DNA from: Candidatus Hodarchaeota archaeon
GTDB taxonomy: Archaea > Asgardarchaeota > Heimdallarchaeia > Hodarchaeales > Hodarchaeaceae
Direction of reading: 5' to 3'
Length of the DNA stretch: 38,167 bases
NCBI GenBank assembly: GCA_016839815.1
Contig: JAEOTM010000037.1
Location: 1 to 38,167, forward strand
Part shown: positions 8,579-35,655 of the stretch, piece by piece
How positions within the stretch are numbered: position 1 is the first letter of the stretch
How the letters are laid out: each line of letters begins with the position of its first letter
Made by a program: the position numbers and the translations under genes
The notes under the pieces: generated by a model
What the model was told of the DNA's origin: nothing
The model's database searches: none
The model's input: only the letters and a program-made list of their open reading frames with translations

Positions 8579-9049
8579 TCAAAAGAATTGATCATAAGCG
8601 CCTGAATTGATCTCGTCAATGATTCTTTTGGGTTCCGAATCATCAACAGTCAATCCAATGGAAACACAAGTTCCCACTACTTCTTTCACAGCAGCACGCA
8701 AACTTACAGCGAGCATTGCATTTTGTTTCATTTTAGCTACTTTTATGCATTGCTCGAAGTTAATATTACCAACTTTTTCAGAGTTAGGAGTGCCACTTCC
8801 TTTCTCTACTCCAGCTTCACTTAAGAGTAAGGAGGATGTTGGGGGGACTCCGACAGTAATAGTGAATTTTCGATTATCGTCTACTTCAACAACTATTGGG
8901 ACTTTCATACCTTTAAAATCTTGGGTTTGCTTGTTGATTTCGTCAATAACTGCTTTGATATTTACACCAAGGGGCCCCAGAGCGGGACCAAGAGGTGGCC
9001 CAGGGGTGGCTTGCCCTGCATCAACTAATGCTTCAATTGTTTTCGCCAT
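8579..9049 (-). CDS. rpl11: 50S ribosomal protein uL11
   Basis: MAKTIEALVDAGQATPGPPLGPALGPLG. The true start is ATG at 9049; the ORF track extends to 9199. Confidence 0.96.
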   Translation of the reverse strand: MAKTIEALVDAGQATPGPPLGPALGPLGVNIKAVIDEINKQTQDFKGMKVPIVVEVDDNRKFTITVGVPPTSSLLLSEAGVEKGSGTPNSEKVGNINFEQCIKVAKMKQNAMLAVSLRAAVKEVVGTCVSIGLTVDDSEPKRIIDEINSGAYDQFF

Positions 9050-9393
9050 TTTGTTCACAAGTTTGAATTTAATCGAAAAAAAGCCTAAACCTTTGGAATC
9101 GGTTGATATGCTTGTTATATAAAGGAGATTTAGTTGACAAATTAAGATTTGTTGTATATTCAATCTTACATCTAAAATATTTAACTTGCCTCTTATCAAT
9201 TAAAAGGAAAAGAATCCTACAAAGAGAAATTTGATAATTAAAGAACTCGCTAATATTGGTATAGATGCCCGTGTTTCTCATTTAGGGGAGAGGGAGAAAG
9301 ACCTCAAAACACACAAAAAATAAGTCTAAAAAACCTAGAAGTAGTCTAAAAAATTAAATAAAACCCATTAAATGAATAAGAAGGGATTTTATT

Positions 9394-10577: not shown

Positions 10578-11231
10578 TTGGAAATTGAATTTGCAGATCT
10601 ACTTGGCAATATCCATATCGGAGTTTCAATTCTATGTACAGAAAATCATGCTTTGATTCCTGTTGAAACACCAGAGGTACTTGTGAAACTTATCGAATCT
10701 ACTATGAAAGTGACAATTATTCGACTTGCTGAAAGGATCATAGGCTCATTAGTTCTTGGAAACTCTAACGGATTTATACTTTCAAATGTAATTGCCAAAG
10801 AAGTTGTTGAACAGATTCAATCAACAGGCTTACCTGTTTACCAAGCACCTGAATTCTTTGCTTTTGGGAATGTAGTGCTAGCCAATGATTATGGAGGAAT
10901 AATCTCACCAATTGTCCCCTCTAAAATCCGACACGATATCGAAAAAATACTGAAAGTCCCACTGAAAATAAAAACCATCGCAAATTCAGATTTAGTAGGA
11001 AGTCTGGCATACATCACGAACTATGGAGGTTTAATCACCCCATTAGCAGATGAAACTGAAGTAAAGGAATTGAAAAGTCTTTTAAACCTTCAGGAGATCG
11101 GAGTAGGAAGTGTTAACAAAGGATCAGAATTTATTTCCTCAGGAATCGTTGGAAACTCCAAAGGTTTACTAATTGGAAGAGAAACGACAGGTATTGAAAT
11201 AATGGAGATTACACGATGTTTCTCATCTTAA
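10578..11231 (+). CDS. eif6: Translation initiation factor aIF-6
   Basis: Pentein repeats (IGSLVLGNSNG, GNVVLANDYG, GSVNKG, TTGIE), in the conserved position after eL31. Confidence 0.92.
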   Translation: MEIEFADLLGNIHIGVSILCTENHALIPVETPEVLVKLIESTMKVTIIRLAERIIGSLVLGNSNGFILSNVIAKEVVEQIQSTGLPVYQAPEFFAFGNVVLANDYGGIISPIVPSKIRHDIEKILKVPLKIKTIANSDLVGSLAYITNYGGLITPLADETEVKELKSLLNLQEIGVGSVNKGSEFISSGIVGNSKGLLIGRETTGIEIMEITRCFSS

Positions 11232-26954: not shown

Positions 26955-28511
26955 GTGGTGGATAAAGTTAAAATAGTGAAGATTTTTCTCCAATATAATT
27001 ATAATGTTAGTGAGGAAACTTTAGAATTCATCCAAAAGAAGAATGTCTCAGAAAGAGAATTAAAAGAGTTTTTGATAACACAACCTCAGTTAGAACCAGT
27101 GATTTCAGTAAACCTTTTGAGAAGATATCTAGAAAACTTAAGAACCGAACCTAAACATATATCTCTGTCTGAAGATTCTGAAGAACAAATAAAAACTGAA
27201 ATTAAGACTTTACAGCAAAAAACACAGGAGCGAAAGTACACAAAATTAAGATTCTCAATAGACTTAGATATACCCTACAAGTTATCAGAGGAACCTAAAT
27301 TAACAGTTTTCCGGAATCTATTTCTGGATCGATATCAAACTCTCTCAAAGATTTTACTTCAAAATCTCGAACCAAATACAACAATTTTGACCCATAATCT
27401 TCCACAGGAGGAAGTTCCGATTAGTAGATCTGGAATGCTCGTTGGGATGATTCAAGATACTCAGGTTCTGCATACTAATCGCTTTGTAATACAACTGGAA
27501 GACTTTTTAACTGGCCGTACAACAAAATGTGTAATTGTGAAGGATACTCCGTCTTTTCCGCAATATAGGAGAATTTTGAGAGACTCAGTAATTGGTGTTG
27601 CGGGAGTATTGCCAAAAAATTTCCTCGAGGGAGAGCTAACAGCTTTTTGGGGACAAGATATTTTAAGACCCTCCTTCAAAAATCACAAATTCTCCACGTC
27701 AGAACCCTCAACTAAAGTATTATGTCTCTCTGATATACACTGTGGTTCATCACACTTTTCAAACCGATTATTCTCCCGACTAGTTGCATATCTGAATGAA
27801 GAGGTAAGTATTCCTGATATCCCATTTTCACCAGCGGAGATCTCCTCAATTATAATTGCTGGAGATTTAGTTGAGGGAACAGGTCTGGTAACAAAGGAGG
27901 AGAATGAACTAAAAATTGATTCTTATGAGGGGCAATATAACAAGCTCTCAGAATTATTGAGGAAAATCCCCGATCGAATTACAATATTTACTATTCCAGG
28001 AGAACATGATGCTACCCATTTAGCCATTCCCCAACCCGCAATAGATAAAAAAATGGGAAAATCCATTTATTCCTTTCCGAATATAAAAAACCATGGAAAT
28101 CCCCTTCGTATAACAATTAATGGAATGAGGTTCTTGATTTTCCATGCTCAAAGTTGTAATAATCTTTTTTATGGCCTAATGAAAATTAACCAGACTTCTC
28201 CAATTCAGGGCTTTAAAGAATTGATGGAATATCGTCATTTATCACCAGAATTTGGATCGTTTGCAGCATATGCACCATACTCAAGAGATTATCTAGTAAT
28301 AGATGAAGTTCCAGATATTTTGGTGACAGGCCATTTTCACCAAGCTAGAAAAGGTATCTACAGAGGCGTAAGTATAGCTACATGTGGAACTTTCAAAAAA
28401 ATGACCAAAACTGACAAGAAAACAGAGAGAGAAGTATCAGTTGGAGTTTTTCCAATCGTAGACACAAAAACAGCAGAAATAACGATGTTAGATTTAAATA
28501 AAATACCTTAA
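26955..28511 (+). CDS. polB: DNA polymerase D small subunit DP1 (phosphoesterase/3'-5' exonuclease fold)
   Basis: Motifs F.DRY, OB fold, SDIH, AGDLVEG, PGEHD, HLSP and DYLVIDEVPDILVTGHFH; adjacent to cdc6. Confidence 0.85.
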   Translation: MVDKVKIVKIFLQYNYNVSEETLEFIQKKNVSERELKEFLITQPQLEPVISVNLLRRYLENLRTEPKHISLSEDSEEQIKTEIKTLQQKTQERKYTKLRFSIDLDIPYKLSEEPKLTVFRNLFLDRYQTLSKILLQNLEPNTTILTHNLPQEEVPISRSGMLVGMIQDTQVLHTNRFVIQLEDFLTGRTTKCVIVKDTPSFPQYRRILRDSVIGVAGVLPKNFLEGELTAFWGQDILRPSFKNHKFSTSEPSTKVLCLSDIHCGSSHFSNRLFSRLVAYLNEEVSIPDIPFSPAEISSIIIAGDLVEGTGLVTKEENELKIDSYEGQYNKLSELLRKIPDRITIFTIPGEHDATHLAIPQPAIDKKMGKSIYSFPNIKNHGNPLRITINGMRFLIFHAQSCNNLFYGLMKINQTSPIQGFKELMEYRHLSPEFGSFAAYAPYSRDYLVIDEVPDILVTGHFHQARKGIYRGVSIATCGTFKKMTKTDKKTEREVSVGVFPIVDTKTAEITMLDLNKIP

Positions 28512-29749
28512 AGAAGTCTGAAATCAAATTGCTTATCTTTCTGTAATGTAGATTCAACTAAAGAACGAGGGATACTAAAATGAATTTCTTTTGTTCTTCC
28601 ATGACGTCCTCGAGAAACTACACGAGCAGTTATAATACCTAAAGCATCGAGTTCGTTAATTAGATCACCTACACGTCGTTGAGTAAGTGAATCCATACCT
28701 GACTCACGACATAGTTGAACATACTTTTCATAGACATCTCCTGTAGAGACAGCGTCAGGATCACTTGTAACGTTTTCAAGTTGATAAATGGAAGAAATGA
28801 CAATTTTGGATTGAATTGGAAGAGTACTAATCACTTCAGTGATTGTATTACGCTCAATGGCTCCTTGGGCTTTTTTAACATGAGATTGTGTTATGACTTC
28901 CGCGTGTTCTCGTTCAGCAATCTCTGCAGACACTCGGAGGAGATCCATAGCACGACGGGCATCACCATGTTCTTGGGCAGCTATCGCAGCTATCATATTA
29001 ATAACACCTTTATCTAGAGTGTTAGGGCGAAAAGCGATTTCTGATCTCTCTACAAGTATATCCGTGATTTCTGGAGCTTCATAAGGTTTGAAAACGAGTT
29101 CTTCTTCTGATAGGGAGGAAAGAACACGAGGATCTAAGTAATCTTTAAACTTCAAATCATTAGATATTCCAATAATGCTAACTTTCGCACTAGAAAGATC
29201 AGAATTAATTCGGGTGAGACTATAAAGCGTTTCATTCCCCGATTTTTTGATTAGGCTGTCGATTTCGTCTAATACGACGATAAACAACGATTCACGTTGA
29301 TCTAGTCCTTGCTTAAATCGGGTAAAGACTTCATCAGTAGCTAGACCAGTAAAGGGAACTTCGATACCCAAGGTACTACACAGATCTGCAAAGACTCGAT
29401 AGTTTGTATCCACATTATTACAGTTTAAATAAGCTACTTCAATGCGTAAGCCATGATCAGGAGCTTTTTCTTTCAACATACTTAAAACATACTTAGAAAC
29501 AGCGGTTTTCCCCGTACCTGTTTTACCGAAGCATAAGATATTACTAGGTTTCGCTCCTCGCAAAACAGAGGCTAAGATATAACCCAATTGTTTAATTTGC
29601 TCCGTTCGGTGTGGAAGATTCTTAGGTACAAAGGAACTATCTAAAACATCGCGCCTTTGAAATAGTTTAGGTGATTTCAGATACCCCTCAAAGATCTCAT
29701 CTAATGTTAAATCTGATTCGTCATTTTGTTTCATTGGTAATGCACCCAC
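28508..29749 (-). CDS. cdc6: Orc1/Cdc6 replication initiator
   Basis: LPHR, Walker A GKTGTGKT, Walker B VVLDEID, HGDAR, and a winged helix with RGRHGRTK. Confidence 0.97.
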   Translation of the reverse strand: MGALPMKQNDESDLTLDEIFEGYLKSPKLFQRRDVLDSSFVPKNLPHRTEQIKQLGYILASVLRGAKPSNILCFGKTGTGKTAVSKYVLSMLKEKAPDHGLRIEVAYLNCNNVDTNYRVFADLCSTLGIEVPFTGLATDEVFTRFKQGLDQRESLFIVVLDEIDSLIKKSGNETLYSLTRINSDLSSAKVSIIGISNDLKFKDYLDPRVLSSLSEEELVFKPYEAPEITDILVERSEIAFRPNTLDKGVINMIAAIAAQEHGDARRAMDLLRVSAEIAEREHAEVITQSHVKKAQGAIERNTITEVISTLPIQSKIVISSIYQLENVTSDPDAVSTGDVYEKYVQLCRESGMDSLTQRRVGDLINELDALGIITARVVSRGRHGRTKEIHFSIPRSLVESTLQKDKQFDFRLL

Positions 29750-29897: not shown

Positions 29898-30221
29898 CTA
29901 CTCATCTGGTAGGGATAAAAGAGATGCAGTTCTCGAAACAGTGATCTGTGCGTCTCGTTTTCGCTGAATATCCTCCAATTTATCTAATAAGGAGGATTTG
30001 TTAAAATGTTGTTTGAAGCGGGAGTCAATGGAACCTAGCTTCTGCCAGGCTAGTTCAGGACTACGACCAAGATATTTCCATGAATACTTACCAGCACGTT
30101 TATCATCTAAACGAGCAGAGTGGTAAGTGACAAGCCACAAGTAGGGGCCGTGATAAACACCTTCATTACAGCGACAACCAGTTTTTCCGCACTTCTGCCA
30201 TTTTGCAAGAACAGAGACCAT
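29898..30221 (-). CDS. Small Cys/His Zn-finger protein (DUF6788-like)
   Basis: KCGKTGCRCNEGVYHGPYLW...WKYLG. Confidence 0.6.
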   Translation of the reverse strand: MVSVLAKWQKCGKTGCRCNEGVYHGPYLWLVTYHSARLDDKRAGKYSWKYLGRSPELAWQKLGSIDSRFKQHFNKSSLLDKLEDIQRKRDAQITVSRTASLLSLPDE

Positions 30222-30296: not shown

Positions 30297-31478
30297 TTAA
30301 TCGTAAGCTTGATGCAATACCTCTAGAGCATCTTCATAATCTACTTCTTCAGGATTAAACGCAATAGCACCATCATTAATCGCATCCTGAGCAATAGTCT
30401 CAAACTTGCTGGAAGAAACCTTAGCTTCCTTCAATGTTTGTGGAAGAGAAACTAAGTTATTGAGAGATTCCTGTAAAGATTTAATGAATTCAATAGTAGC
30501 TGTGGGTAGATCAGCTTTAGGAATAGAAGAATAATGCTTAGGACCAGCAAGAGGGAGGAGAAGATTCCCAATAATATCACTTACTTTCTCAAGATTGTAT
30601 TTTAATCCATGAGGAAGAAAAATATTCATTGCTACACCATGTGGAACACCACAAACTCCACCAGTTGCATGACCTAAAGCATGTACCATTCCTGCAAGAG
30701 AATTTGATAACCCCACACCTGCAAGGAAGGCAGCAGTTGATAACGCAAAACGTCCCTTTGAATCCTTAGGTTTCTTTATGATTTGAAGTAAATGTTTACT
30801 TAAGATTTGAATTGCAGAAAAAGCAAAAGCACTTGAAATAGGATTTTTTTGCAGACAATATGATGATTCAATGGCGTGTGTTAAGGCATCCATTCCAGTA
30901 GCGGCAGTCATGAACGGCGGAAGTGTCAAAGTCATTCGAGGATCTAAAATAGCAACATCGGGGATTAAATGCTGACTTGAAAAACCCATTTTTATATTGC
31001 GATTTGAATCTCTGATAACCGCAACCCCAGTCGCCTCAGAACCCGTTCCACTTGTTGTAGGAACAACAATTAATGGTTTTAGGGGTGTTTTAATTATATC
31101 ACCTCCAACAAAATCAAAAATCGTTTCAGAGTTGTGTGTAACTAATATATTAACAGCTTTTGCAGTATCAATCACAGATCCTCCTCCCAAAGCGATTAAG
31201 GAATCACTTTTTGTTTCCCGATAAATTTCAGCCAATTCATTAACAACAATATCAGATGAATCTTGAGGTACATTATCGAAAAGTGAGAAAGCAATATCTG
31301 TCTCACCAAAGGCACTTTTAATATGTTTAATTAAACCTACTCTTTGAATCCCTTTGTCAGTAATAACGAACGGCTTTTTGGCTTGTAAATGCATCAATTC
31401 ATAAGGAATATTTTCTAAAGCATTAGTTCCAGCAAGGATCTTCACAGGATTATAAAATTCAAAATAGGAGGGGATCAT
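30297..31478 (-). CDS. Iron-containing alcohol dehydrogenase
   Basis: Motifs GGGSVID, PTTSGTGSE, DALTHAIE, HALGH and PHG. Confidence 0.93.
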   Translation of the reverse strand: MIPSYFEFYNPVKILAGTNALENIPYELMHLQAKKPFVITDKGIQRVGLIKHIKSAFGETDIAFSLFDNVPQDSSDIVVNELAEIYRETKSDSLIALGGGSVIDTAKAVNILVTHNSETIFDFVGGDIIKTPLKPLIVVPTTSGTGSEATGVAVIRDSNRNIKMGFSSQHLIPDVAILDPRMTLTLPPFMTAATGMDALTHAIESSYCLQKNPISSAFAFSAIQILSKHLLQIIKKPKDSKGRFALSTAAFLAGVGLSNSLAGMVHALGHATGGVCGVPHGVAMNIFLPHGLKYNLEKVSDIIGNLLLPLAGPKHYSSIPKADLPTATIEFIKSLQESLNNLVSLPQTLKEAKVSSSKFETIAQDAINDGAIAFNPEEVDYEDALEVLHQAYD

Positions 31479-31495
31479 TCATATCATCTCATCAT

Positions 31496-32038
31496 TCACA
31501 AACCAAAAGGAATTCCTAAAAGGATAATTCGGAGTCTTCCAATGTATCTTTTATAGAAGGAAATTTTAGGTAATCGCTTAACAACTCGTTTTGCTAGGAT
31601 ACGAGGATATAAATATACTTGAATGCGATTTAAAATACGAATTAAGGACAAAGCAATTGTTATATCACCTTTAAGAAACGCTCCGTGTTCTAAAAAGGCC
31701 TGAACGGCCCCTTTTTGGGATGTCATTAACAAAAACGCATATTCTATATTTTTAATATATATCGTCATATCAGGGACGTTTTCAGTATTTCTGCATCGTA
31801 TTAGGGTATTATTCTGTTTACACAAAATCAATGCTGGACCAGTGGGAAATATTTCATAAACAAGTGTGAAAGTCTCTGGCCAGTTGTGGAGTTCTTGTTG
31901 AATTATTTTATCAAATCGGGAGGCTGATTGAATAGATCGCCCAAGTATAAATAAAACAAATGTGACTATTCCTCGTTTCAGACGTTTCTGACTAGGAGAA
32001 ATTAGTTTGTACGTGGCAGCACTCATAATACCAGCCAA
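31496..32038 (-). CDS. Hypothetical protein, possibly SCP2-like lipid-binding fold
   Basis: Operonic with Fe-ADH. D.TIYIKN...AF.....LKGDI.IA resembles an SCP2 C-terminus. Confidence 0.5.
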   Translation of the reverse strand: MAGIMSAATYKLISPSQKRLKRGIVTFVLFILGRSIQSASRFDKIIQQELHNWPETFTLVYEIFPTGPALILCKQNNTLIRCRNTENVPDMTIYIKNIEYAFLLMTSQKGAVQAFLEHGAFLKGDITIALSLIRILNRIQVYLYPRILAKRVVKRLPKISFYKRYIGRLRIILLGIPFGL

Positions 32039-32041
32039 GGA

Positions 32042-32476
32042 TTACCCCTTGATCCATAGTTCTTGACGAGATATACCATTAGTAGCTATAATTGGAAGCA
32101 GGATTAGAACACCAGTAAGAGTATCAGTAAAAGCAATCAGAATATAGGCTGCTTCTATACCCTCAGTTAGCCAAAGAAGAAGAACTATTAAAGCAAAAGC
32201 GAGACGAACCATGGAAGAGCCAAATCCGATAAATAAATAGTTCGTAACATCATGAAAACATGCATACAAAAGATAATATCCTACGACAAGAAGAAACAAC
32301 CCACTACTATAGACAAACACCATAGTATTAGGTTTATTGATCTGAAAAATAGAAATCAATAAGTCTGGAACAATTATTACTCCTAACCCAAGAATAATAT
32401 CATAAATTCCTCCAATAAAATAGCCTATTCGTATGAATTTAGGATCAGTGAGTTTTAACACCAAAGTCCACCCCAA
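32042..32476 (-). CDS. Four-helix membrane protein, unknown function
   Basis: Four hydrophobic segments; stop 3 bp before the next start. Confidence 0.65.
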   Translation of the reverse strand: MGWTLVLKLTDPKFIRIGYFIGGIYDIILGLGVIIVPDLLISIFQINKPNTMVFVYSSGLFLLVVGYYLLYACFHDVTNYLFIGFGSSMVRLAFALIVLLLWLTEGIEAAYILIAFTDTLTGVLILLPIIATNGISRQELWIKG

Positions 32477-32554: not shown

Positions 32555-32854
32555 TCAGTTTAAGGCTTTATAAAAAACCTTTGGCCGCCCTCTATGACGA
32601 CGATCTTCAGAATAACTAGCCACATATCCTTTAAGAATCAAACGAAGAAGACTGTCATAGAGAGTAGAACGAGCAATCCCTGTCAACGAAACAAGCTTCC
32701 CTCTAGTCAGAGGTCCTTGCTGTTCAAGAATGTCTAACACCTGACGATCCAAATCATGGACAATTGAAGGTTTATTATGTGATAGACTATGCCGACGATC
32801 AGATGATCCAACCTTGGGTTTACTGATTACGCGAAGTAACTGATTATTGGACAT
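32555..32854 (-). CDS. Winged helix-turn-helix DNA-binding protein (TrmB/ArsR-like)
   Basis: LTRGKLVSLTGIARSTLYDSLLRL...GRPKVFY. Start refined to ATG 32854; the ORF track gives 32911. Confidence 0.8.
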   Translation of the reverse strand: MSNNQLLRVISKPKVGSSDRRHSLSHNKPSIVHDLDRQVLDILEQQGPLTRGKLVSLTGIARSTLYDSLLRLILKGYVASYSEDRRHRGRPKVFYKALN

Positions 32855-33200
32855 GTGAGACACCGTAGAATACAAGAGGATGTGGAATCTACGACATATA
32901 AAACACCACAATATGTAGATTATACGAAGATATTTTCTGATACGAAGTTGATAATTGTGGGTTTAGCGAAATTTTCTGAGAAGGACTGACTTTTTAACTT
33001 TCAATTGATAAAATCAACAGTCACAATTATTGCAAATTCGATTGATAGGTCAAAAGAGGGGATTAAGGTCAGTTAAACTCCAACCAAGAAGTGATTTGTG
33101 TATCTTTCTAAGATATTGCTTAATTGATCAATTTTATAAGAAGAAATTATTTTAGAAAAGCTCTAGTTCGATTAAGTTAATTTAATTATAACTTAGTAGC

Positions 33201-33872
33201 TTAGAAAAATTCAGATAAAGTTTTCTTAGGTCTTTTCTTTTTTGCTGGTTTTATTGTTTCCGGCCCATTATCTCCTTTACTAGGTAAAGAATCAACAATC
33301 CAACTATTCATTTCACCTTCATAAGGTTTAAGCATTTCTGATAACTCTTCTTGAGTTTTTTCGTGATCAAGCCAATTAGCTACTTGTTTCTTATTGAGAA
33401 TTACTGGCATCCTATGAAAAATCTTCTCAACAACAGGATGAGGTTTTGTTGTCAAAACTGCACATTTATATTTCATTTTACTCTCCTCTTCACTGAAATA
33501 GGAATTATACACCCCAGCGATTCCGAATAGTGGCTCATTTTTTAAAGAGAAATAGTGTGGAATTCTTTCTTTTCCAGAATGTTCCCATTCAAAGAAGCCA
33601 TTTGCTAATATCACACAACGCTTTTCAATAAAGGCTTTCCTAAAAAGTTTTTTTTCATGAACAGTTTCACTTCTGGCTTTATATGATTGAAAGCCCTTTG
33701 TATAACCCCAATACATTCGTACTAGTTTGTAATCTTCTTCATTTACAATTCCAGTTGCTCTATTAGTTGGTTTTAAATTGTAATAAGGATAGATTTCAAT
33801 ATTCTCTGAAGAAACGCCAAAGAATGATCCGATCTCGTCTTTCGAGGAAAAAAAGGCAAATCTAGAAGGCAT
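33201..33872 (-). CDS. SRAP (SOS-response-associated peptidase; HMCES/YedK) family protein, non-canonical
   Basis: Family motifs YNLKPT, WG, ARSET, F..RC.I.ANGFFEW, AGVY and RMPVIL. The N-terminus is MPSRF rather than MCGRF. Confidence 0.9.
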   Translation of the reverse strand: MPSRFAFFSSKDEIGSFFGVSSENIEIYPYYNLKPTNRATGIVNEEDYKLVRMYWGYTKGFQSYKARSETVHEKKLFRKAFIEKRCVILANGFFEWEHSGKERIPHYFSLKNEPLFGIAGVYNSYFSEEESKMKYKCAVLTTKPHPVVEKIFHRMPVILNKKQVANWLDHEKTQEELSEMLKPYEGEMNSWIVDSLPSKGDNGPETIKPAKKKRPKKTLSEFF

Positions 33873-34039
33873 ACGATTAGATTTGGTACCAGTTTTAAAA
33901 AAATGTTCTACGAAACCTAAAATGGTAAAAAAATCTTAAAACTGAACATTTTTCAAAGGATAAAAGCAAATCCATCAAAGATCCTCATATTAGGACAACT
34001 AGATAGCGACTCTTGTCCTGAAAGAATGAAGGACAAATC

Positions 34040-34522
34040 TTACATTATAATTTTAGGTAGATGATTAACCTTTTTACTATTAATGCGATATTCGAGAGGT
34101 GTGACGCCCTCTTGACGTTCTACAAAGCCTGATTCTACCAAGCGATTTAAATTTGTCTGGATTGTAGAAATACCAATATCTTCCTTCAAATAATGAGTGT
34201 AAAGTTCCTGGATTTCACGGGCTGTCAAGAAATTTGGATTAGCTCGATTATAGACAATAGATAAGATCCGTTCTTTCTTGGTCTCTAGATCCGATAATGA
34301 AACTACTTCAGGTAGAGTTGGAGATTCAAAGATAGATTCAGTTTGAGGCTCATTTTGAAGGAGTAAAGATTCGAGAAGATCATCTATTTGCTTCTGTTGG
34401 TTTCGAGATAATTCTAAGTATCCTTCAACCAATGTATGAAGCGGTCCAAGACGTATCTTGCGATCAAACGCGATAGTTATCTTATCATTGTTTGCAGTTA
34501 TTTTAGAACCTGTTTCACGCAT
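34040..34522 (-). CDS. Protein with C-terminal winged-helix domain
   Basis: KERILSIV...LTAREIQELY...ISTIQTNLNRLVESGFVER...EYRI. Confidence 0.7.
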   Translation of the reverse strand: MRETGSKITANNDKITIAFDRKIRLGPLHTLVEGYLELSRNQQKQIDDLLESLLLQNEPQTESIFESPTLPEVVSLSDLETKKERILSIVYNRANPNFLTAREIQELYTHYLKEDIGISTIQTNLNRLVESGFVERQEGVTPLEYRINSKKVNHLPKIIM

Positions 34523-35355
34523 AATTTCTACACGTCACTTGATAAAAGATTGAATAGTAATTAGTAGATAAGTTCATTTGAACTAATCTTTCACAACTAG
34601 TCATAAGATATTCACTCTAATAAAGATTAATTAATATCTCTATAATACAAAACACGGGTTCTACCGACAAAAACCTTAATGGAATATTCACATGTGAAAA
34701 ACCATTCACTTGTGAAGCTTATTTTACATAAATCATAGTGAAATGAAAAATATCGGAGGAATTAGGAATTAATGAGTTAAAAATCCTTTGATTAGTAAAA
34801 TGAGACAAAAAAAGTCATTAATTTTGTAATCAACTGAAATCTCCTATTTTTTCATACGTTATGAAATAACGAGTTGTGAAAAGGAATAATACTCCTCATA
34901 AGAAAAGACTGTAAAGTTGCAGTGGAAACAAGGGGGGTGAAAATGTACAATGTGAAAACAGAAAAAAAGATGGTTAAAGGAAAGTAACTTGGTTAATTGA
35001 GGAAATATAAAAATCTTTGTCTTTAAATTTATAGTAAAAAGAAATCCTCTTGTAAAATCTAATATTAAAGCAAAAACGCCTTTTTTGACCTCAATTTCCA
35101 GTGAAAGAAAAACATGGAAAATGACCTAGATTTGTGAAACATACACTTACATGGAAAAAATATTACCAAAAAAATGTGAAACGAATTTCTCTAAGAATCT
35201 CTTATCCTTGCTCATGTCCAAAGGATGAAATTCTTTCTCTCAACACAAGGAATTCCAAGAATACCTTGCATAATATTGAGCTCATACTGAAAATCTTAAA
35301 AAACCTGAACACCTAAATTACATAAATCAGTTTCATAAAGAGCTGACATCAAGAA
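34523..35355. other. Putative chromosomal replication origin (oriC)
   Basis: Longest intergenic region in the window, AT-rich, with a near-canonical ORB, many TGTGAA/TGGAAA/AGTGAAA half-sites, a gene-orientation switch, and cdc6 about 5 kb away. Confidence 0.7.
34916..34938 (+). promoter_or_regulatory. Origin recognition box (ORB) with G-string
   Basis: GTTGCAGTGGAAACAAGGGGGGT versus the archaeal ORB consensus of roughly GTTCCAGTGGAAAC-AAAGGGG. Confidence 0.78.
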
Positions 35356-35655
35356 ATGACCCGTTATATGGATGAAACGCTAGTAGTCGAACCAGAAGAG
35401 GAACAACCAATTGAAAGTCATCCTCAAGAATCTATCTCTAGTTTTACAAATCAAACCGACTTAAAAGTGTTTAATGCATTAAAAGAACACCAACCAGCCA
35501 CACGGATGGATCTGTGTGATAAAACGGGAATAGCACGGACTACAATCTATGATGCACTAACACGACTCATGGTTTTGAAAGTCGTTACAAAATATTCACC
35601 CCCAGTCTCCAAGAAAGGTCGTCCTAAAGTCTTTTACCGAACTATTTCGGAATAA
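35356..35655 (+). CDS. Winged helix-turn-helix DNA-binding protein, paralogue of 32555-32854
   Basis: ATRMDLCDKTGIARTTIYDALTRL...GRPKVFY. Confidence 0.8.
   Translation: MTRYMDETLVVEPEEEQPIESHPQESISSFTNQTDLKVFNALKEHQPATRMDLCDKTGIARTTIYDALTRLMVLKVVTKYSPPVSKKGRPKVFYRTISE

Follow-up and report, generated by a model that had tools for sequence, protein, structure and literature searches.

We analyzed the 38,167-bp contig JAEOTM010000037.1 of a Candidatus Hodarchaeota archaeon, here called the window (the entire contig, C30 in our numbering), which belongs to a metagenome-assembled genome of 4.24 Mb in 206 contigs with 36% GC. It contains an 833-bp non-coding gap flanked by genes for three small winged helix-turn-helix (wHTH) proteins, wHTH-A, wHTH-B and wHTH-C (A, B and C below), on the same contig as a gene for the replication initiator Orc1/Cdc6. 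Comparison with related genomes makes it very probable that a conserved, origin-linked winged-helix module exists. Our overall explanation, held with only slightly more confidence than doubt, is that this locus of a Hodarchaeales (Asgard) archaeon contains a chromosomal replication origin of the Orc1-1 type; the gap would be a docking platform, and the wHTH proteins would reside at the origin and bind TGTGAA boxes. A first-pass annotation of the window had proposed an origin-associated module with dedicated factors. The linkage of A, C and B to an origin recognition box (ORB) stood up to analysis; the membership of a nearby SRAP gene and an analogy to the Sulfolobus initiator WhiP did not.

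The gap and its motifs

The gap (34523 to 35355) contains one canonical Orc1 site, one mini-ORB, approximately eight TGTGAA boxes, some of them forming dyads, and two putative promoters. The Orc1 site, ORB1 (34916 to 34943, plus strand; GTTGCAGTGGAAACAAGGGGGG), has both the dyad and the G-string of ORB-type origins. Across the 4.24-Mb assembly, the full ORB pattern was matched just once, by TTGCAGTGGAAACAAGGGGGG at 34917; a composition-based estimate gave a chance expectation of about 0.03 per genome. This genome encodes four Orc1/Cdc6 paralogues, and the copy in the window is the origin-linked one. On the contigs of the other three, the strict full-ORB pattern had no match; a looser TGGAAAY..GGGGG pattern matched on C47, about 48 kb from the orc1 gene of that contig, and the bare dyad matched on C185, about 21 kb from the orc1 gene there. 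The gap also contains the densest TGTGAA[A/T] cluster of the genome, with 7 occurrences in 800 bp versus a genome mean of 0.46 per kb. Clusters on contigs C33 and C98 were considered as second origins and rejected: the former is a repetitive coding region, and the latter is short and intergenic and has no ORB. This smaller cluster of TTTCACA boxes (G000:C98:51900-52110) lies between two large genes and could be an additional target of a box-binding factor.

To compare the region within Hodarchaeales, we collected 16 loci from 16 related genomes and aligned 14 gap regions with MAFFT. The recurring gene order was STT3, DP1, Orc1, DUF6788, A, C, a gap of about 820 bp, and B. A, C and B flanked one ORB-bearing gap in 14 Hodarchaeales genomes, and the length of the gap was 819 to 833 bp in 11 of the 14. 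In six of the seven Hodarchaeales loci that have both orc1 and the gap, the two were approximately 1.1 to 2.3 kb apart with only DUF6788, A and C between them. The aligned regions consist mostly of diverged sequence, in which short motif islands stand at fixed positions. Judged from the alignment, this is the pattern of a protein-docking region and is ill suited to a coding sequence or an RNA gene. As the gap had no match in Rfam, a known RNA gene there is improbable.

The ORB core occupies one and the same place throughout the 14 aligned regions, with a degenerate G-string in G016; ORB1 of the window differs from the clade consensus, GTTCCAATGGAAATAAGGGGGT, at four positions. TGTGAAA boxes on the plus strand stand on either side of ORB1. 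One (34875 to 34881) is located approximately 40 bp upstream, and its TGTGAA core is invariant in 14/14 regions; the other (34951 to 34957) is located 9 bp after ORB1 in a conserved block of columns. An AT-rich, poorly conserved spacer follows (34970 to 35069), which is among the eight least stable 100-bp windows of the contig. This spacer, between ORB1 and the mini-ORB, is a candidate DNA unwinding element. The mini-ORB itself (35096 to 35106, plus strand; TTCCAGTGAAA), preceded by a conserved ACCT, was kept in 14/14 regions and has the form ACCT..TTCCnGTGAAA near alignment position 570. Further TGTGAAA boxes are found on the plus strand at 35133 and 35175 (35133 to 35181).

Both edges of the gap carry strongly conserved blocks. 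On the side of wHTH-C, the most conserved block of all (34611 to 34638, minus strand) reads TTCACTCTAATAAAG..ATC.ATA.C in the alignment. It contains a putative TATA box and B recognition element (BRE) plus a TTCAC half-site, and TTCACTCTAATAAAG is probably part of the promoter of the C-A gene string. Near the presumed transcription start of wHTH-C lies a TGTGAAA box on the minus strand (34589 to 34595), whose position was kept in 12 of the 14 genomes; a reverse TGTGAAA island is seen near alignment position 70. Two dyad boxes, TTCACATGTGAA and TTCACTTGTGAA, are located between 34687 and 34716, and the alignment has two TTCACnnGTGAA dyads near positions 165 to 200. On the side of wHTH-B, the block ATACTGAAAATCTTAAA (35284 to 35303, plus strand) is near-invariant in 14 genomes and lies about 55 nt before the ATG of B; its ATACTGAAAATCTTAAATAT is probably the BRE/TATA promoter of that gene.

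Ten sister genomes contain an inverted second ORB (ORB2; …CCCGTTGATTTCCnATGGAA…) about 115 nt past the stop codon of B, and their ORB1 and ORB2 face each other across approximately 850 bp that enclose the B gene. ORB2 has been lost in the subclade formed by this genome and its three closest relatives (G000, G002, G005 and G007), in which the DNA past B is not conserved. In one genome, G008 (CP070760), B appeared to be separated by 1 Mb from C-A-Orc1. The two ends stop in 100-N gaps within the origin gap (L124:~8950-9050 and L037:~10640-10740), so the split is a probable scaffolding artefact, and it was not used as evidence.

Linkage across Asgard archaea

To extend the comparison to the phylum, we searched 301 sampled genomes for homologues with single sequences. 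Homologues of C were found in 84 of them, almost always one per genome, and homologues of A in 151, single-copy outside Hodarchaeales. Counted by hand from the match coordinates, about 45 genomes from at least ten families have A and C no more than 5 kb apart. By tblastn over 35 loci, the Orc1-DP1 pair had C and/or A as immediate neighbors in families f8, f25, f17, f28, f20, f22, f10, f13, f19 and f3. Canonical ORBs (CCAGTGGAAATAAAGGGG), often as inverted pairs, were present in the adjacent gaps in f8, f17, f28, f10, f13, f19 and f3. The loci of f25, f20 and f22 had no match to the canonical ORB despite the same gene linkage. By their labels, the linked lineages include Odin-, Baldr- and Borrarchaeia and Heimdallarchaeum. 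Thus, the synteny with ORB regions that the first-pass annotation had put forward as a check was confirmed in 14 Hodarchaeales genomes and at least ten further Asgard families, and the orthologues are not scattered without regard to ORBs. The recognition-helix pattern of A occurred at 76 loci in 185,579 species genomes; all were labelled Asgard except one, on a contig that is probably mis-binned.

The TGTGAA box was first noticed in Hodarchaeales. We therefore ran a k-mer test outside that order, comparing the intergenic DNA of the module with other intergenic DNA of the same loci at 19 non-Hodarchaeales loci. The hexamer TGTGAA/TTCACA was the most enriched word (78 observed versus 13.4 expected, in 18 of 19 genomes) and ranked above words derived from the ORB. 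In 14 of the 18 ORB-bearing loci, an ORB lay no more than 600 bp from the densest TGTGAA window. Even at module loci that lacked a strict match to the ORB, C was adjoined by the box cluster. Words containing GTTAACA/TGTTAAC or GGCGCC were also enriched near the origin in several families (for example, L136:10600-10810 and L127:10380-10660), and a third conserved origin motif may exist.

Two kinds of locus bear on what the linkage follows. Sampled genomes of f14 and f27 have the Orc1-DP1 pair with no A, C, ORB or box cluster nearby, and the canonical ORB was found nowhere in the three complete or near-complete genomes searched. Because A, C, ORB and boxes are missing together at these loci, the four appear to behave as a unit, present or absent as a whole package. 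In the same families, a conserved open reading frame of about 215 to 240 codons lies between dp1 and orc1 (L263:2802-3485, L264:764-1411 and L270:668-1393). In f7 (G247), orc1 is on another contig, and an inverted ORB pair, 11 boxes and the C homologue are found together. The ORB pair surrounds 150 bp of AT-rich DNA, and the boxes are arranged in tandem and inverted with a spacing of 9 to 10 bp. Since C stays with the ORBs and boxes while orc1 is elsewhere, it seems that C follows the origin DNA and not the orc1 gene.

Strand bias gave limited additional information on origin use. Heimdall, Loki and Odin genomes have been described as lacking a clear bidirectional skew, and a Freyarchaeia genome as having one (PMC11291895). 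We sampled the first half of the complete Freyarchaeia genome at a resolution of about 90 kb. Up to 1.63 Mb, 17 of 19 samples had a positive skew, and at 1.70 Mb the skew was negative; the Orc1-ORB locus, at 1.637 to 1.639 Mb, is where the sampled skew changes sign.

Proteins encoded at the locus and neighboring genes

wHTH-A (32555 to 32857, minus strand) and wHTH-B (35356 to 35655, plus strand) are transcribed outward, in opposite directions. The relationship between them noticed in the first-pass annotation, a pair of paralogues of about 100 residues with near-identical recognition helices and wings, was borne out by BLASTP: the two are identical at 29 of 70 positions (41%) in a gapless alignment (E 1e-18), with TGIARSTLYD in A and TGIARTTIYD in B as recognition helices and GRPKVFY in both wings. 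Of the just three family members encoded in this genome, A and B are most closely related to each other. Their N-terminal tails are oppositely charged, that of B being acidic. The start of A is most likely the ATG at 32857, giving 100 residues, and not the TTG at 32911, because the orthologues begin with MSNNQ. In the predicted structure of A, residues 1 to 33 are disordered and residues 35 to 98 form a winged helix with a predicted local distance difference test score (pLDDT) above 90; the wing ends at residue 98 of 100. R63, T65, Y67 and D68 of the recognition helix are invariant phylum-wide.

The family is Asgard-wide and resembles Lrs14 and TrmB regulators. B scored 27.5 bits against the TrmB HTH (PF01978), above the Pfam cut-off of 25.6. 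A scored 23.3 bits, below that cut-off, and reached 22.0 bits against HTH_24, just above the cut-off of 21.9. In both proteins the match is limited to the DNA-binding domain, and the TrmB effector domain is absent. The nearest solved relative of A is a 109-aa regulator of Sulfolobus tokodaii, PDB 2d1h (profile E 1e-9), with which the wHTH core of both A and B aligns; by this measure the homology of A and B to Lrs14/Sta1-type regulators of Sulfolobales is real. We rejected membership of the family itself, since the NCBIfam Lrs14/Sta1 scores of A and B (26 to 36 bits) are below the cut-offs of 80 to 90 and no C-terminal helix follows the wing. Unlike the Lrs14/Sta1 regulators, A and B stop directly after the wing and have instead a disordered N-terminal tail of about 30 residues. 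In a tree of the winged-helix core, the B proteins form a Hodarchaeales-only clade that is sister to a clade of A proteins from Hodarchaeales and f22. From this position, B is best read as a lineage-specific duplicate of A, confined to Hodarchaeales.

wHTH-C (34040 to 34522, minus strand; 160 aa) is the third wHTH gene that had been noted as abutting an origin-like region, and it does adjoin the 833-bp, ORB-bearing gap. Of all the genes it is the one that most constantly adjoins the ORB and the TGTGAA array. We found no sequence relationship between C and B, and C is likewise unrelated to A. AlphaFold2 predicted an N-terminal β-hairpin and helix, a disordered linker and a winged helix at the C-terminus (mean pLDDT 72). 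Pfam matches to FUR, Penicillinase_R and TrmB were all weak and below cut-off. The automatic name "transcriptional repressor", implying the Fur family, was rejected: PF01475 scored 22.2 bits against a cut-off of 23.1 and covered the winged helix only. Membership of the Fur family also requires a metal-binding dimerisation domain; the wing is the last element of C, and the module at its N-terminus is unrelated. Foldseek, PDB-profile and NCBIfam searches gave no replication-specific match for C, only generic winged-helix regulators. T120, T123, L125 and R127 of its recognition helix are invariant phylum-wide.

The gene that encodes DP1, the small subunit of DNA polymerase D (26955 to 28511, plus strand; Pfam DNA_pol_E_B and Metallophos), is convergent with orc1/cdc6 (28508 to 29749, minus strand; Cdc6_C 1e-28, Cdc6_lid and AAA), and the two frames overlap by 4 bp (28508 to 28511). 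All related loci retain the DP1-Orc1 pair; in most lineages examined phylum-wide, the convergent arrangement is kept with variable spacing. The Orc1/Cdc6 orthologues are 79 to 96% identical within the genus and 50 to 58% phylum-wide. The next gene (29898 to 30221, minus strand) codes for a zinc-ribbon-like DUF6788 protein (PF20586 at 31 bits) and is conserved between wHTH-A and orc1. It occupies the same position in Hodarchaeales loci, recurs in f22 and is also present in f3, where it is divergently transcribed; possibly it is an additional member of the module. Its motif is CGKxxCxC...HGPY, and a relative transcribed divergently adjoins A-orc1 in Heimdallarchaeum-type genomes. A gene for an iron-containing alcohol dehydrogenase and two membrane-protein genes (30297 to 32476, minus strand) are an insertion between DUF6788 and wHTH-A. 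As at other ORB-type origins, orc1 is near the gap, at a distance that has grown to 4.8 kb because of this insertion. Two close relatives, G007 and G005, likewise have the membrane-gene pair, at least in part, as an insertion, and all three genes are inserted in G002. Beyond wHTH-B, a secreted FG-GAP protein is encoded by the last of the genes around the module.

The first-pass annotation had recognized a variant SRAP gene, and the protein is indeed encoded between A and C (33201 to 33872, minus strand; PF02586 159 bits over residues 1 to 194). In SRAP/HMCES proteins, Cys2 is the catalytic N-terminal residue, which forms a thiazolidine cross-link to abasic sites. The N-terminus here is MPSRF instead of MCGRF, so that the catalytic Cys2 is lacking, and all three full-length orthologues begin with MPSRF or MPSRL. 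Pro2 and a C-terminal TLSEFF, which resembles a PCNA-interacting-protein (PIP) motif, are conserved in the orthologues. The suggestion that SRAP is a component of the module fared less well. The gene is missing from 16/16 related loci, and orthologues occur elsewhere in just 4/23 relatives, at unrelated loci. The spacer between A and C is approximately 120 to 190 bp long in the close relatives G005 and G007 versus 1.1 kb here. Because no relative has SRAP at this locus, we place it outside the conserved module; it is a recent, lineage-specific insertion of about 1 kb between A and C. The SRAP orthologues are 83 to 86% identical versus 45 to 73% for wHTH-C in the same genomes. Together with the scattered loci and with decayed copies (G014:C7 and G004:C93), this suggests a mobile cassette. 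The unit is about 725 bp long (33201 to 33925) and consists of the gene and some 55 nt upstream, found in differing contexts. The A-C spacer as such (32858 to 34039 in the window; L161:5092-5883) is a recurrent insertion site: in G002 (B3_Heim) it contains an element of about 59 kb that ends in an integrase-like gene, and in G016 about 1.2 kb of additional DNA. Insertions at the locus in G000, G003, G014 and G002 all keep C and B beside the gap.

Models and known systems

We propose that the gap would serve as a rigidly conserved protein-docking platform and that A, C and B would be DNA-binding proteins resident at the origin. The TGTGAA boxes would be their binding sites; its constant adjacency to the array makes C the best candidate, and A and B would be suited to the dyads. 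The three proteins may control the divergent promoters of the gap, with the C-A-DUF6788-orc1 string on one side and B on the other, and may shape or gate the action of Orc1 and MCM at the origin. Whether winged-helix proteins bind the boxes seems to us an evenly balanced question; that they directly affect initiation is doubtful. A still more tentative suggestion is that A and C (plus B in Hodarchaeales) are Asgard-specific origin co-factors that act on iteron-like TGTGAA arrays and license, time or limit Orc1-dependent MCM loading.

Several observations weigh against this model. The four ORB-bearing loci in which the densest box window was not close to an ORB are Odinarchaeia loci, where box enrichment was weak. 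In the complete Hodarchaeales genome G010, GC skew in 60 stretches of 20 kb, with a correction that used third codon positions, was noisy, and there was just a local cumulative minimum one sample before the locus. No second ORB, inverted or otherwise, was found at up to 6 mismatches between 26 and 38 kb of the window. With one full ORB present and ORB2 missing, unwinding within the gap is unproven. Other observations can be read in terms of ordinary local regulators, an account that we regard as possible and rather unlikely. Here, A, B and C would autoregulate and also control orc1 and dp1, the boxes would be mini-ORBs read by Orc1/Cdc6 or a paralogue, and the linkage would last only because promoters and origin occupy a single intergenic region. 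The folds of the winged helices agree with those of standard repressor families, and Foldseek and PDB-profile searches likened the winged helix of C to those of the ordinary regulators RosR, Fur, MarR and MecI. The boxes at the edges of the gap overlap the putative promoters, as would be compatible with plain autoregulation; on the C side these are the box at 34589 and the TTCAC block at 34611. Relatives have extra A-family paralogues away from origins (for example, at 422 kb in G010) with no ORB or box cluster nearby. TGTGAA boxes could also be mini-ORBs bound by Orc1: the TTCCnGTGAAA element is a hybrid of ORB and box, and binding of Pyrococcus Cdc6 to clusters of 13-bp mini-ORBs is established in Thermococcales (Matsunaga et al. 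2007, PMC1904270). However, the TGTGAA core is not part of the ORB core, unlike in the Pyrococcus mini-ORBs. The boxes that flank ORB1 at fixed distances are about 270 and 330 bp from the nearest putative promoter block, and in f7 it is the ORBs and boxes with which C remains, on a contig without orc1.

Two other explanations fared worse. The earlier full model combined an A:B heterodimer, C and a PCNA-tethered SRAP into a dedicated system for origin licensing and fork protection. It draws on the close paralogy of A and B, with their near-identical recognition helices and oppositely charged tails, on the presence of dyad boxes and on the PIP-like TLSEFF end kept by the SRAP orthologues. However, SRAP is off-locus in all relatives, behaves as a mobile cassette and is never origin-linked in the four relatives that have the gene, and B is limited to Hodarchaeales, the module elsewhere having a single A-type gene; this makes the full model very improbable. 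We give even less credence to hitch-hiking, in which small genes would neighbor orc1 by chance or through low recombination near the origin. Gene order at haloarchaeal oriC1 is also highly syntenic and includes neighbors without known function (PMC3528665). In Asgard archaea, however, the linkage extends across at least ten families that differ in the arrangement near orc1 and in the order and orientation of the genes; the package of ORB, boxes, A and C co-varies, and repeated insertions leave C beside the array.

Returning to the proposal of an origin with resident wHTH proteins, we compared the locus with characterized systems. It resembles Sulfolobus oriC1 and Pyrococcus oriC in its ORB with a TTCCAnTGGAAA dyad and G-string, in its AT-rich spacers and in the convergence of orc1/cdc6 with dp1, and in sister genomes also in the two ORBs that face each other. 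It differs from the oriC1 type, in which at least two inverted ORBs around an AT-rich unwinding element are expected, in that the window has a single full ORB, with orc1 displaced 4.8 kb by inserted genes, and that the facing ORBs of the sister genomes are some 850 bp apart and enclose wHTH-B. A further difference is that a second, non-ORB repeat, TGTGAA, dominates the Asgard region. WhiP, a non-Orc winged-helix initiator, is encoded beside Sulfolobus oriC3; it is related to Cdt1 and has two winged helices. The likeness to A, B and C is that of a non-Orc winged-helix protein encoded at an origin. The analogy found no support in sequence or domains: a Pfam scan with E up to 0.1 gave no match to the Cdt1 family for A, B or C, and the models of A and C show a single winged helix and not a Cdt1-type tandem. 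Unlike WhiP, A, B and C have one winged helix each and always accompany an Orc1 and ORB origin without replacing Orc1.

In Sulfolobus oriC1, an essential motif named ucm is bound by UBP, a protein that is not an initiator (Dhanaraju et al. 2025, PMC12141716). UBP is a β-rich, saddle-shaped nucleoid protein that forms a strand-swapped dimer and has hundreds of genomic sites, and its gene is not described as origin-linked (PMC12141716). With its non-ORB motif at an origin and a small non-initiator DNA-binding protein that modulates the activity of the origin, this system is the best functional analogy; the proposed likeness is limited to function, the fold of UBP being different from a winged helix. 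Unlike UBP, the candidates here are winged-helix proteins encoded at the origin, and the box arrays have approximately 8 to 11 copies. The mini-ORBs of Thermococcales, with a second cluster in dp1, are likewise short repeats that cluster only around oriC/cdc6/dp1, in an organisation conserved across the order (PMC1904270). They differ in being ORB cores bound by Cdc6, whereas TGTGAA is not part of the Asgard ORB.

Hardly any study has dealt with how Asgard archaea, the nearest known relatives of eukaryotes, start replication. The searchable literature gave us no account of an Asgard origin that includes these genes or boxes, and the searchable reviews and genome papers define Asgard origins by GC skew at most. 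What is new here is the anatomy of the Hodarchaeales locus, the duplication that gave rise to B and the place of B between a pair of ORBs in sister genomes, the disappearance of ORB2 from this subclade and the exclusion of SRAP; the idea that the unusual Cys-less SRAP belongs to an origin system is thereby corrected. The locus offers a concrete, sequence-defined origin architecture that combines ORBs and TGTGAA arrays with two or three resident winged-helix genes and recurs in Heimdall-, Odin-, Baldr- and Borr-type lineages. With it, the questions of whether archaeal origins have accessory sequence-specific factors and how orc1 expression is coupled to the state of the origin become testable, as does the question of why f14 and f27 have apparently lost the whole package.

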